From assembly GCA_951406725.2 (NCBI GenBank), contig OX597842.1, positions 1,922,001 through 1,986,000 on the forward strand: DNA of 64,000 nt, written 5' to 3'. The position numbers and the translations under genes are program-made. Shown here piece after piece: positions 38,053 through 43,584 of this stretch; position 1 is the stretch's first letter, and every line of letters begins with the position of its first letter. The DNA comes from Octopus vulgaris (lineage: Eukaryota). The notes under the pieces were generated by a model, which ran no database searches, had not been told where the DNA came from, and saw only the letters and a list, made by a program, of their open reading frames with translations.

Positions 38053-38255
38053 CTATATATATATATATATATATATATACGTTTAAATATTTGTTGTGCA
38101 AGATTTTTTATGTGAAGTCGTGTGTTGAAACAGATATTGTTATATTTCGGAATGGTCATATTGCCAGTTTAGCCAATAAAAACACACGCACTATATATTT
38201 GGTGTTATTTTGCTTCAGTGATATTTATTTTTTACATTAATCTTAATCTTATTTT

Positions 38256-38300
38256 GGCCAAAGTTCTTTCGTCACACTCCTGTGACCGCATCAGTGGTCC
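38256..38300 (-). ncRNA. Variant minimal hammerhead motif in PLE 3' region (left copy)
   Basis: Mirror of 43418-43462. Confidence 0.6.
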
Positions 38301-38817
38301 TTTGTTTTCTTCTCACTTACTTGTGTCTCTCCTTACTAACCGTCAGCCATTTTGTATTTCTATTGTATGTCTTCATTTGCGCATGCTTATATCTCTATGT
38401 GCGTCTATGTTTATTTAGTGTGTGGGGGGGGGGATGTCTGTAATATTTGTATCTTCTGGTTATATACATTCTTGTAATTTGTATTTTGTTTTTGTTGTTG
38501 TTGCTTTTGTTCTAATTTTGTTCATGTGTTTACATCCACCCATTATTATCATTACATATGCTTGTATGTATGTATAACAACAATATTAGTAATAATAATA
38601 ATAAATCTAATCGATAAAAAAAAAAAAAAAAAAAGAATATACATATACATATATATATATATACATACATATACATATACATATATATATATACATATAT
38701 ACACACACATATACACATATACATATACATATATATACACATATACATACATATAGATATTCATTTCTATTTCTTTAATTACCTGTGTATTTATTATGTT
38801 TGCAGGATCCACTATTG

Positions 38818-40966
38818 TCATATGTTGTGGTGTGCGCTATTGCTCCATTCTAGTTTTCTATTCAGGCTAGGTTTATTTTCTATTATATGTGTAGCTTCTG
38901 TAATTTGTCTAATTGTTGCATCTGTTCTATGTGTGGACAATATCTCAATCTCTATGTTATTGATTGATCCCCCGTGTTCTTGTTCGGCGTGTTGGTACAG
39001 AATCGATGAGCTTTTACCTTCCTTGAGTTGTCTCCAATGTTCATTCACCCGCTCACCAATGCTTCTTGCAGTTTCCCCTACGTATGTTACTGTCTTGTTA
39101 CTGCATCTTCCCTCTATACATCTTATACTATAGACCACATTTCTGGCTTTACAGTTCGTTTGTGGGCTAAATCTACATACAGTGCAATAGTTATCCGTAC
39201 AGAGAGTTCTACTAAAAGGATAGGTTCTACCAATTATAGATCTGATAGGGTTGCCTGGCTTTTCAACAACCTTAATTCTTAGTTTAAGTTTATCTAGGGT
39301 CCTTCTAAAGCGGTACGCTAGTTCACCTCCAGGGGTGGTGTCAACGAACATGACACTCTGGTATTTATGGCTATCATACCAAGAGTTGGCCTTCCTTATT
39401 TTCTTTTTGTCCTTTCTATAGTGTTCCATGACTTGTTCCTATAGAGTGGGCAAATCCCATTCCTATCATTACATAATATATTATCAAATTTCTTCATGGC
39501 TCCTTTGTATACTCTGATCCTTTCTTTATGGCTGTAACCTGAGAACTGCATGCGGTGAATGAAATACTGTATGTGTCTCTTTAATTCTGTAGGCTCGCAC
39601 ATGCGTGACACATTTCTCATTATTCTGACGAGGTCTGCCATCAAAATATTGAATTTGGCATTGCCCGCAATGGCTGAGTTCCGGTGGATCAGGTATTTTG
39701 AGGCCATAGGTTTTGCATAGTATGAATGAAGGATTTGGGTTTTATTTTTCACAATTTCTAGCCAGAGTTCAGTGTCTAGTACTGGTAGTCTATGGTTGGG
39801 GTGTTTAGTGGGGTAGTCTATTGTGACCTTAATACTCTGGTGGATGGAGTTAGCTATTTGCTGGATGCTCTCCATAGTATTAGTTTCTATTACTATATCA
39901 ACCGTACTCTCTTGTGGGGGTGCCTTTACTACTATATTGATATCATCAACATAGCGAGAGTACATGTTTACGAGTATGGATTTCTGCAGTAGGCATTCTT
40001 TAAGCCTTCTGTCCCACCATACCATGAAGAGGTTGGCCACATCACCAGCGATACTAACACCGATGGCTGCCCCCTCGTCCTGGGCATATATTTTATTATT
40101 AAATTTAAATGTGTGGCCTTTTAGGGTAACTCTTATACTAGCTCCTAGTGCATGTGCGATCATTTTCTTTACCTGATGGACATTTGCGGGGATCCGTATG
40201 GCTCTGGTCCATCCGCGCCATCTTTCTATATGTGTCTTCCTAGCCATAGAAGTAATTGTAGGCGGTCTACCTCTTAAACATCTACTGGGGCAGAAACTAC
40301 TAAGATTATGTTTATCTAAGTATTCACTATTATATGTCAGTCTAAGTAGGAGGCCCAGTTCTTCTGTGTCGACATTACAGAACTCCACCTGGCTCTCGTT
40401 GATCATCTCCACGCACTTCTCCACTGCAAAATCTACGTCAATCGATGGGTATAAGGATACCACATCCATGCTACCTACTATACATCCTGTCAAGTCACAA
40501 GTTTTGTTACAGTCACTGATCCTGCTTAGGAGATCTTCTGTGCTGTCACATACATCAGGTGACATCCTGATTATAGGGCGTATGATCATTGAGAGGAAGT
40601 AGGAGATTCTGTAATTGCTAGCGATATTCGCTCCACAGACTGGTCTTGTTGGTGGTCCTGCTATAGGGTCAGTAAAACCTTTATGGTCCTTGCGAAGTCC
40701 ATACAGTGCCGGGATATCATTGTTCCAGGCTTGGAAATTCTTTGCAGTACGTTTCTGAGGTCCCAGAACAATTGTCCACATCATCATGTGGGCATTGAGG
40801 ACCTTTTCTCTCTCCTCATGCGCCTGTACAGTTGTTACTTTTGTATTGGCGATATGAGGTTGCATTGCCTGGATGTAGTTCGGTAAGCTGTCTATTGACA
40901 TCCTGCCTGACTTATCCGTGGGAAGGCATATCACCTCTCCGTTCCTCGTGCGCTGAATGAGTGAAT
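38818..40966 (-). pseudogene. PLE RT/GIY-YIG ORF with a 1-bp frameshift
   Basis: A5 instead of A6 at ~39404-39408 splits it into track ORFs 39396..41039 and 38818..39429; could be a homopolymer sequencing error. Confidence 0.85.
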
Positions 40967-42905
40967 GAAACGTACTGCAAAGAATTTCCAAGCCTGGAAC
41001 AATGATATCCCGGCACTGTATGGACTTCGCAAGGACCATAAAGGTTTTACTGACCCTATAGCAGGACCACCAACAAGACCAGTCTGTGGAGCGAATATCG
41101 CTAGCAATTACAGAATCTCCTACTTCCTCTCAATGATCATACGCCCTATAATCAGGATGTCACCTGATGTATGTGACAGCACAGAAGATCTCCTAAGCAG
41201 GATCAGTGACTGTAACAAAACTTGTGACTTGACAGGATGTATAGTAGGTAGCATGGATGTGGTATCCTTATACCCATCGATTGACGTAGATTTTGCAGTG
41301 GAGAAGTGCGTGGAGATGATCAACGAGAGCCAGGTGGAGTTCTGTAATGTCGACACAGAAGAACTGGGCCTCCTACTTAGACTGACATATAATAGTGAAT
41401 ACTTAGATAAACATAATCTTAGTAGTTTCTGCCCCAGTAGATGTTTAAGAGGTAGACCGCCTACAATTACTTCTATGGCTAGGAAGACACATATAGAAAG
41501 ATGGCGCGGATGGACCAGAGCCATACGGATCCCCGCAAATGTCCATCAGGTAAAGAAAATGATCGCACATGCACTAGGAGCTAGTATAAGAGTTACCCTA
41601 AAAGGCCACACATTTAAATTTAATAATAAAATATATGCCCAGGACGAGGGGGCAGCCATCGGTGTTAGTATCGCTGGTGATGTGGCCAACCTCTTCATGG
41701 TATGGTGGGACAGAAGGCTTAAAGAATGCCTACTGCAGAAATCCATACTCGTAAACATGTACTCTCGCTATGTTGATGATATCAATATAGTAGTAAAGGC
41801 ACCCCCACAAGAGAGTACGGTTGATATAGTAATAGAAACTAATACTATGGAGAGCATCCAGCAAATAGCTAACTCCATCCACCAGAGTATTAAGGTCACA
41901 ATAGACTACCCCACTAAACACCCTAACCATAGACTACCAGTACTAGACACTGAACTCTGGCTAGAAATTGTGAAAAATAAAACCCAAATCCTTCATTCAT
42001 ACTATGCAAAACCTATGGCCTCAAAATACCTGATCCACCGGAACTCAGCCATTGCGGGCAATGCCAAATTCAATATTTTGATGGCAGACCTCGTCAGAAT
42101 AATGAGAAATGTGTCACGCATGTGCGAGCCTACAGAATTAAAGAGACACATACAGTATTTCATTCACCGCATGCAGTTCTCAGGTTACAGCCATAAAGAA
42201 AGGATCAGAGTATACAAAGGAGCCATGAAGAAATTTGATAATATATTATGTAATGATAGGAATGGGATTTGCCCACTCTATAGGAACAAGTCATGGAACA
42301 CTATAGAAAGGACAAAAAAGAAAATAAGGAAGGCCAACTCTTGGTATGATAGCCATAAATACCAGAGTGTCATGTTCGTTGACACCACCCCTGGAGGTGA
42401 ACTAGCGTACCGCTTTAGAAGGACCCTAGATAAACTTAAACTAAGAATTAAGGTTGTTGAAAAGCCAGGCAACCCTATCAGATCTATAATTGGTAGAACC
42501 TATCCTTTTAGTAGAACTCTCTGTACGGATAACTATTGCACTGTATGTAGATTTAGCCCACAAACGAACTGTAAAGCCAGAAATGTGGTCTATAGTATAA
42601 GATGTATAGAGGGAAGATGCAGTAACAAGACAGTAACATACGTAGGGGAAACTGCAAGAAGCATTGGTGAGCGGGTGAATGAACATTGGAGACAACTCAA
42701 GGAAGGTAAAAGCTCATCGATTCTGTACCAACACGCCGAACAAGAACACGGGGGATCAATCAATAACATAGAGATTAAGATATTGTCCACACATAGAACA
42801 GATGCAACAATTAGACAAATTACAGAAGCTACACATATAATAGAAAATAAACCTAGCCTGAATAGAAAACTAGAATGGAGCAATAGCGCACACCACAACA
42901 TATGA
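40965..42905 (+). CDS. Penelope-like reverse transcriptase + GIY-YIG endonuclease, 646 aa, N-terminally truncated
   Basis: RT motifs [33 protein letters not shown]; Cys linker [48 protein letters not shown]. Confidence 0.95.
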
Positions 42906-43576
42906 CAATAGTGGATCCTGCAAACATAATAAATACACAGGTAATTAAAGAAATAGAAATGAATATCTATATGTATGTATATGTGTATATATATGTATAT
43001 GTATATGTGTATATGTGTGTGTATATATGTATATATATATATGTATATGTATATGTATGTATATATATATATATGTATATGTATATTCTTTTTTTTTTTT
43101 TTTTCTCGATTAGATTTATTATTATTATTACTAATATTGTTGTTATACATACATACAAGCATATGTAATGATAATAATGGGTGGATGTAAACACATGAAC
43201 AAAATTAGAACAAAAGCAACAACAACAAAAACAAAATACAAATTACAAGAATGTATATAACCAGAAGATACAAATATTACAGACATCCCCCCCCACACAC
43301 TAAATAAACATAGACGCACATAGAGATATAAGCATGCGCAAATGAAGACATACAATAGAAATACAAAATGGCTGACGGTTAGTAAGGAGAGACACAAGTA
43401 AGTGAGAAGAAAACAAAGGACCACTGATGCGGTCACAGGAGTGTGACGAAAGAACTTTGGCCAAAATAAGATTAAGATTAATGTAAAAAATAAATATCAC
43501 TGAAGCAAAATAACACCAAATATATAGTGCGTGTGTTTTTATTGGCTAAACTGGCAATATGACCATTCCGAAATAT

Positions 43577-43584
<8 letters not shown>
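40967..43584 (+). mobile_element. Penelope-like element, right copy
   Basis: Reverse complement of 38134-40755; runs into (TA)n at ~43581. Confidence 0.95.
43418..43462 (+). ncRNA. Variant minimal hammerhead motif in PLE 3' region (right copy)
   Basis: ggacca-CTGATGC-g-gtcaca ggag tgtgac-GAAA-gaacTT-tggcc; A9C change plus one extra nt before stem II. Confidence 0.6.

Follow-up and report, generated by a model that had tools for sequence, protein, structure and literature searches.

Penelope-like elements (PLEs) that carry an endonuclease leave a characteristic footprint at their insertion sites. As described in the accessible text of PMC8557442, an inverted, 5'-truncated copy with a tail of 30-40 bp on one side is typical of their insertions, and its formation is left unexplained. 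The available sections of PMC3846280 note head-to-head arrangements for Pen2a and Pen3 of Adineta vaga and propose self-priming on an antisense template; partial tandems and (TA)n targets complete the picture (Fig. 2 legend of PMC8557442; PMC3846280). As far as the consulted parts of these two papers go, self-priming or resolution by the endonuclease has been put forward, and not priming from both ends. For an anole PLE, the portion of PMC11167929 at hand reports that in vitro both strands are cut and extended by the enzyme, which has two start sites, one on either side of the tail.

We analysed a head-to-head palindrome of this kind in a 64,000-nucleotide stretch of Octopus vulgaris DNA (assembly GCA_951406725.2, contig OX597842.1, positions 1,922,001 to 1,986,000; hereafter the window). 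A first-pass annotation made from the letters alone had read it as one integration event of a young PLE family, and had noted that inverted 5'-truncated segments are common in PLE insertions, which PMC8557442, in the text available, indeed calls typical. Genome copies, the reconstructed full unit, the rule followed by the ends, the agreement of haplotypes and the geometry of the arms bear out this reading, and a single insertion of a young PLE is thus supported. The head-to-head palindrome is by itself ordinary, being both the usual insertion form of the family and the published PLE architecture; the one-tail rule and the haplotype agreement, which are counted here, go beyond that architecture. 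The explanation we favour, with a probability of roughly 0.55, is that both cut ends primed synthesis on one RNA (twin priming), with two fixed start sites 55 nt apart. The main features of the locus, in positions of the window, are the following.

38054..38079, no strand: left (TA)n target, whose final base is common to the tailed end of the element
38079..40961, minus: left arm, a 5'-truncated PLE copy with tail (unit positions 1701-4586)
38079..38133, minus: 55-nt tail, present in the left arm only (unit 4532-4586)
40756..40961, minus: unpaired part of the left arm (the palindrome spacer), 206 nt of coding sequence with the DKS motif
40962..40966, no strand: 5-nt junction insert, a copy of adjacent bases of the templated-insertion type; the junction occurs once only in the assembly
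40967..43584, plus: right arm, a 5'-truncated PLE copy without tail (unit positions 1907-4531)
40965..42905, plus: open 646-aa reading frame, a remnant of the reverse transcriptase (RT) and endonuclease
43582..43617, no strand: right (TA)n target, whose starting bases are common to the tail-less end

The palindrome and its family

The two arms (38134-40755 on the minus strand, 40967-43584 on the plus strand) align over 2617 columns with three substitutions, at 39798/41924, 38946/42777 and 38615/43105, and three homopolymer indels. They are as near-identical as first described, and the second substitution is the E/K codon difference singled out at that stage. The spacer had been taken for 211 bp of PLE coding sequence of the left copy; this holds for 206 nt, but the other five (40962-40966) are the junction insert. 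The left copy does extend further at its 3' end, by 55 nt rather than the estimated 54 or so, and the (TA)n noted at both outer ends was read in the flanking sequence. In the left arm a homopolymer indel (A5 versus A6 at 39408/39409, a 1-nt deletion) shifts the frame of the open reading frame (ORF) and leaves pieces of 577 and 206 aa; the right arm keeps an uninterrupted frame of 646 aa. The N-terminal half of the 1271-aa ORF is absent from both arms, and this copy is therefore dead, the family keeping intact ORFs elsewhere. The junction insert happens to provide an in-frame ATG (40965-40967) ahead of the RT-endonuclease remnant, which is probably incidental.

A genome search (40 candidates scored of 2504) gave dozens of copies that are 99-100% identical, and a tandem locus yielded a unit of 4586 nt with an ORF of 1271 aa. 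This ORF contains an asparagine-rich insert, as does that of A. vaga Pen2a-4 in its published description as far as available, and it is intact in 7 of the 14 copies that bear the start codon. The tandem joints were identical in 13 of 13 cases. Exact end patterns joined to TA number 1671 for the tailed and 2620 for the tail-less end; at least three TA units adjoin 147 of 192 outer ends, and most of the others border AT-rich sequence. The family comprises several haplotypes of near-identical age. A protein 98% identical to that of the element carries the label Octopus vulgaris, and PMC13282606 reports 31 recently active PLE families in this species, the family of the palindrome not being named in that part of its text which was examined. 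No RNA run carrying the element was present among the runs listed.

Some further observations concern the copies themselves. Full units stand head to tail with an identical 1-nt joint at four places, L036/L035 (G000:C19:14371-14387 kb), L039, L052 and L060, which would be in keeping with a read-through or circular RNA. At L144 (G000:C2:158193400-158200400), a related older family (about 82% identical) is also arranged head to head, with a near-perfect axis. In the run list, five organism labels besides that of the host showed 69-78% of the element's words. Horizontal transfer, considered on account of these six labels, found no support: four of the five others were tested, all contained the host short interspersed element (SINE) at high depth, and these labels probably stand for close relatives or for samples that contain the host.

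Ends, haplotypes and joints of paired arms

The two ends of an insertion follow a strict rule. Along C1 (0-160.8 Mb) there are 78 exact tailed and 100 exact tail-less ends, which form 38 neighbouring pairs; 36 of these face outward, every one of them combining a tailed with a tail-less end, and the remaining two lie on the same strand. An exact partner is missing for 40 tailed and 62 tail-less ends of the same region. When unpaired ends were sampled, 20 of each kind, a head-to-head partner was present in 23 of the 40, and it was of the opposite kind wherever it could be resolved. Over a total of 133 loci, 35 of them picked as tail/tail-less pairs and the others for their ORF, one of their ends or a variant, the head-to-head arrangement was found in 108, with 104 joins of a tailed to a tail-less arm, none between two tailed arms, none between two tail-less arms, and 7 unresolved.

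The arms of a locus also share their haplotype. At 21 common polymorphic sites, a single one of 81 informative loci had discordant arms, whereas 42.5 would be expected if partners were taken from other loci, an expectation that partly reflects age classes; in the long, young set it is 1 of 34, with about 20 expected (row sum). The palindrome has three variants common to both of its arms and absent from the first sample. Two of them mark a sub-lineage (8 and 46 matches) whose sister copies have the common base at the third site, and the third variant is restricted, across the assembly, to these two arms. Three comparable variants were tested at loci in which the tail-less arm is the longer: two were unique to their locus (L038, L065) and one was a lineage marker.

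The arms differ in how far they extend. The arm extending further 5' is the tail-less one in 52 of 90 resolved pairs and the tailed one in 29, and 9 pairs have arms of equal reach (within 6 nt); in 10 of the pairs with a longer tail-less arm the two arms do not overlap at all. Co-terminal arms, with ends at most 6 nt apart, occur in 9 of 59 pairs, whereas permutation gives a mean of 2.0 and reached nine in 0 of 5000 trials. The loop is of 0-1 nt in 7 of the 11 co-terminal joints, and such joints are more readily explained by two cDNAs that ended where one RNA ends than by priming from a hairpin. Inserts are absent from 66 of the 96 joints and present in 30, and several of these inserts are local duplications like that of the palindrome. 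Microhomology of at least 2 nt is seen in 43 of the 66 insert-free joints (null, 17%).

Two recurrent breakpoint patterns were observed besides. Minimal insertions of about 75 nt occur at L067, L075, L078, L083, L101, L121 and L136, and their breakpoints (unit 4554-4560 and 4483-4488) are nearly the same from one to the next, do not overlap and are joined through microhomology. Inner arm ends cluster at unit 4300-4327 in many loci (e.g. L076, L088, L104, L109 and L130), possibly at the transcription start that defines the pseudo-long terminal repeat (pLTR).

Formation of the two arms

In the twin priming of L1 elements, both target ends prime cDNA, and the inverted pieces are joined through microhomology. 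In the octopus family, by contrast, the start sites are fixed, most pairs of arms have sequence in common, and such a product is the normal outcome. From the structure of the copies, the end rule, the haplotype agreement and the features of the joints, we infer a course of cleavage, priming, strand displacement and enzymatic joining. Within a (TA)n tract, the PLE endonuclease would cleave the two strands, and each of the resulting DNA ends would prime reverse transcription on one shared RNA, the two fixed start sites lying 55 nt apart. The cDNA begun at unit 4531 would lead and that begun at 4586 would follow, displacing the leader from the RNA. Both would stop early, at 1907 and 1701 in the palindrome, and their 3' ends would be joined via microhomology or slipped synthesis, each then templating the other strand. 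This joining would resemble polymerase-theta end joining. The 55-nt tail would correspond to the stretch between the two start sites, on a model patterned after the available part of PMC11167929, and it is longer than the 30-40 bp tails given for PLEs in the text of PMC8557442 consulted. That both cut ends prime reverse transcription, be it on one RNA or on two, is probable; the first-pass proposal that both broken ends were primed and the cDNAs joined at their inner (5') ends agrees with the end rule, the haplotypes, the geometry and the joints.

The main rival keeps twin priming but supplies each subunit with its own RNA and a single start site, the two RNAs stemming from the same source copy, either loaded in cis on a dimer or because one source is active per germ cell. 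It would explain the end rule, the haplotype agreement, the non-nested arms and the microhomology equally well, it dispenses with long strand displacement, and a private variant of the source would appear in both arms. Yet it does not predict that arms stop at the same base, as the co-terminal pairs do (and also L146 and L160, 2 kb inside the element), and cells expressing more than one source would be expected to give mixed pairs, the haplotypes being near-identical in age. We consider it unlikely, though it comes next in order. Fold-back, which the first-pass annotation had offered as its other possibility, lets one strand snap back and copy itself, a staggered cut then resolving the ends, as in the antisense-template model in the sections of PMC3846280 available. 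The haplotype agreement, the unique shared variants, the nested arms of the palindrome and the near-perfect palindromes at some joints would all follow from it. As a general mechanism it fails, however: a target-primed cDNA begun at 4531 contains nothing from which a tail could be copied, which puts the 52 pairs with a longer tail-less arm out of its reach, 10 pairs have no overlap, and loops of 0-1 nt are too tight for a hairpin primer. Its sole escape is a free hairpin cut with either polarity, requiring an integrase-like step, and we regard fold-back as improbable.

An origin from two independent insertions, or from a single one that repair or gene conversion afterwards turned into a palindrome and homogenised, seems to us very improbable. 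The variants unique to a locus and present in both arms could be conversion tracts, but no signal of arm-to-arm conversion is seen at the level of the family: over 54,837 nt and 46 loci the arms differ from each other at 87 positions and from the nearest other locus at 63, and since the arm-to-arm differences are not the fewer, conversion is not needed. Nor would this origin lead one to expect a strict one-tail rule together with different flanks on the two sides. An artefact of assembly or a fold-back read is less credible still, even if the junction is without independent read support and the homopolymer indels may be consensus errors, for the flanks differ, the arms carry three substitutions and end asymmetrically at fixed positions of the element, and the same architecture recurs in the 108 head-to-head loci.

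Several points weigh against twin priming on one RNA. It demands the displacement of a leading cDNA over kilobases, as we reconstruct it, and the haplotype agreement and the unique shared variants would also fit two RNAs of one source copy that is absent from the haploid assembly. At the palindrome itself the left arm spans the whole of the right one, a nested geometry compatible with fold-back. Because no second arm was detected in 17 of the 40 loci picked by one end, either twin priming is not obligatory or arms get lost. No empty site was seen for the palindrome insertion, any target duplication being masked by (TA)n, and no contig among those listed, which are short and come from four runs, bridged the junction, a result that is uninformative. 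In the anole work no difference in start site between the strands was seen, and the available text of PMC11167929 does not address inversion and reports no pairing test. Our literature searches, which covered sources outside the subscription journals, found no paper proposing twin priming for PLEs, and the part of the bioRxiv retrozyme preprint at hand mentions neither priming nor a tail.

Reverse transcriptase, 3' end and placement of the lineage

The right arm preserves the following features of the protein and of the 3' untranslated region (UTR), the last being mirrored in the left arm.

41253, 41640 and 41769, plus: RT motifs A, B and YVDD, followed by the thumb
41340..41550, plus (limits approximate): some 70 additional residues separating motif A from motif B, where telomerase has its insertion in fingers
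42522, plus: C-x4-CxxC linker
from 42585, plus: GIY-YIG endonuclease with CCHH
43418..43462, plus: minimal type I hammerhead-like motif in the 3' UTR, read by eye and conserved in copies
38256..38300, minus: mirror copy of the hammerhead-like motif, read from the sequence

A single ORF with a telomerase-like RT and a GIY-YIG endonuclease, partial tandems (pLTR), an inverted 5'-truncated copy and a one-sided tail are those of an endonuclease-bearing PLE. The matches in Pfam are weak and below its cut-offs (RVT_1, E 4e-4; GIY-YIG, E 2e-3), and the full 1271-aa ORF had no Pfam match. CCHH is represented by a pair of Cys that the motifs VVY and YVG enclose, and by His residues after them. Among the homologues, the endonuclease is C-terminal to the RT in all 94 that have both motifs, and the short-linker pattern occurs in 102 of 121 proteins. 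Sequence searches of the PDB returned no PLE and a weak match to the DRT1 RT, and those of the ESM Atlas returned unnamed clusters or clusters of RVT_1, HTH_animal and DUF8422.

The distance from motif A to motif B is 128 aa in this family and 120-139 aa in every one of the 147 homologues, out of 248 proteins, in which it could be measured. The reference distances, counted by hand from Fig. S1 of PMC8557442 as available, are 57-60 aa for the rows Penelope, Neptune and C_remanei; a Naiad has about 84 and human telomerase reverse transcriptase (TERT) about 115, so that the distance in the octopus family is telomerase-like in length. According to the accessible text of that paper, the insertion in fingers is absent from canonical PLEs with a C-terminal endonuclease, and by comparison with this text a telomerase-sized RT insertion in such elements is unreported. 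The extra segment has conserved motifs and was found in 101 clusters at 50% identity. In a model of the whole protein its mean predicted local distance difference test score (pLDDT) is 89.8, with two blocks at 77 and 62; folded in isolation it gave a poor 37. The solved folds closest to the RT model are TERTs (Z 15.5, root-mean-square deviation 3.4, 231 aligned), tied with RTs of diversity-generating retroelements and group II introns. The likeness of the segment to TERT's insertion-in-fingers domain (IFD)/TRAP is one of length and position, the fold searches giving ranges only.

Comparison with the described clades gives a mixed picture. With Nematis the family shares the C-terminal GIY-YIG with CCHH, the endonuclease end type EA..I....P.LN and the short linker C-x4-CxxC-x7-C-x4, as in row Nematis_C4 of Fig. 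S2 of PMC8557442. The reduced CX2-5CxxC linker and C-terminal CCHH endonuclease of that clade are thus present, but its lack of an insertion in fingers is not: motifs A and B are about 60 aa apart in the C_remanei row of the Fig. S1 consulted, against 128 here. The motif is DKS rather than DKG, and the host is a cephalopod. The C-terminal endonuclease, a zinc-finger linker and the targeting of microsatellites are shared with Neptune. In the Neptune rows available, about 25 residues separate CxxC from the next Cys, the endonuclease ends in W...GLN and A to B spans 57 aa, unlike the octopus family, which has neither the long CX2-5CxxC linker of Neptune nor its fingers without insertion. A long A-to-B insertion recalls Naiad, Chlamys and TERT, although that of Naiads (about 20 aa) and Chlamys (20-40 aa) is shorter and their endonuclease is N-terminal, whereas here, as in the homologues, it follows the RT. 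Penelope/Poseidon has no zinc-finger linker, and Hydra elements lack CCHH and have a CxCX5C linker, DKT and a unit below 3 kb, against the CCHH, DKS and 4.6-kb unit found here; the C-terminal CCHH endonuclease and the short Nematis-type linker therefore exclude Penelope/Poseidon, Naiad and Hydra. Five signature strings of the lineage were not found in the supplement of PMC8557442, the part available covering only Naiad, Chlamys and Hydra ORFs. To judge from its sequence, a lineage with a long RT insertion and a Nematis-type linker may be undescribed, or it may already be catalogued in Repbase or Dfam.

The hammerhead-like motif in the pLTR is a candidate ribozyme. It has a stem II of 5 bp and a stem III of 2 bp, with a non-canonical C at the expected A9; minimal hammerheads are described in PMC4209133, in the text available. 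An Rfam scan returned no hammerhead and gave microsatellite-driven microRNA matches, and folding of the 3' end indicated no unusual stability (z 0.46). Another hammerhead-like core, immediately ahead of the tail-less end, was dismissed, as its stem II cannot close.

Three other palindromes were noted in the window. That at 17948-19555 is head to head, with 750-nt arms 95% alike and a 112-nt spacer; its left arm extends past the right, which ends in (TA)n, and it looks like the stub of a different PLE-type family. An older AT-rich palindrome, 86% alike, begins at a (TA)n tract (62173-62812). At 21175-22843, inverted arms of 236 nt enclose a 1.2-kb interior with its own inverted repeat, and the repeats are SINE- or satellite-like.

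One might tentatively read the genomic record of this family as one of coordinated twin priming, in which a dimer would cleave the two strands and each DNA end would have its own fixed start site on a single RNA, and as that of an undescribed, widespread lineage of PLEs with a C-terminal endonuclease and a telomerase-sized insertion in the fingers; the two together are a possibility we hold with some doubt. If true, coordinated twin priming would explain at once the tail and the head-to-head inversion, that is, the one-sidedly tailed inverted insertions whose formation the accessible text of PMC8557442 calls an open problem. The family offers a large, young set of marked copies, for which the rival models make different predictions, and its intact ORFs make a direct test possible. 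The long RT insertion bears, in turn, on the origin of the telomerase IFD, which may have been inherited from an ancestor common with PLEs or may have arisen several times.

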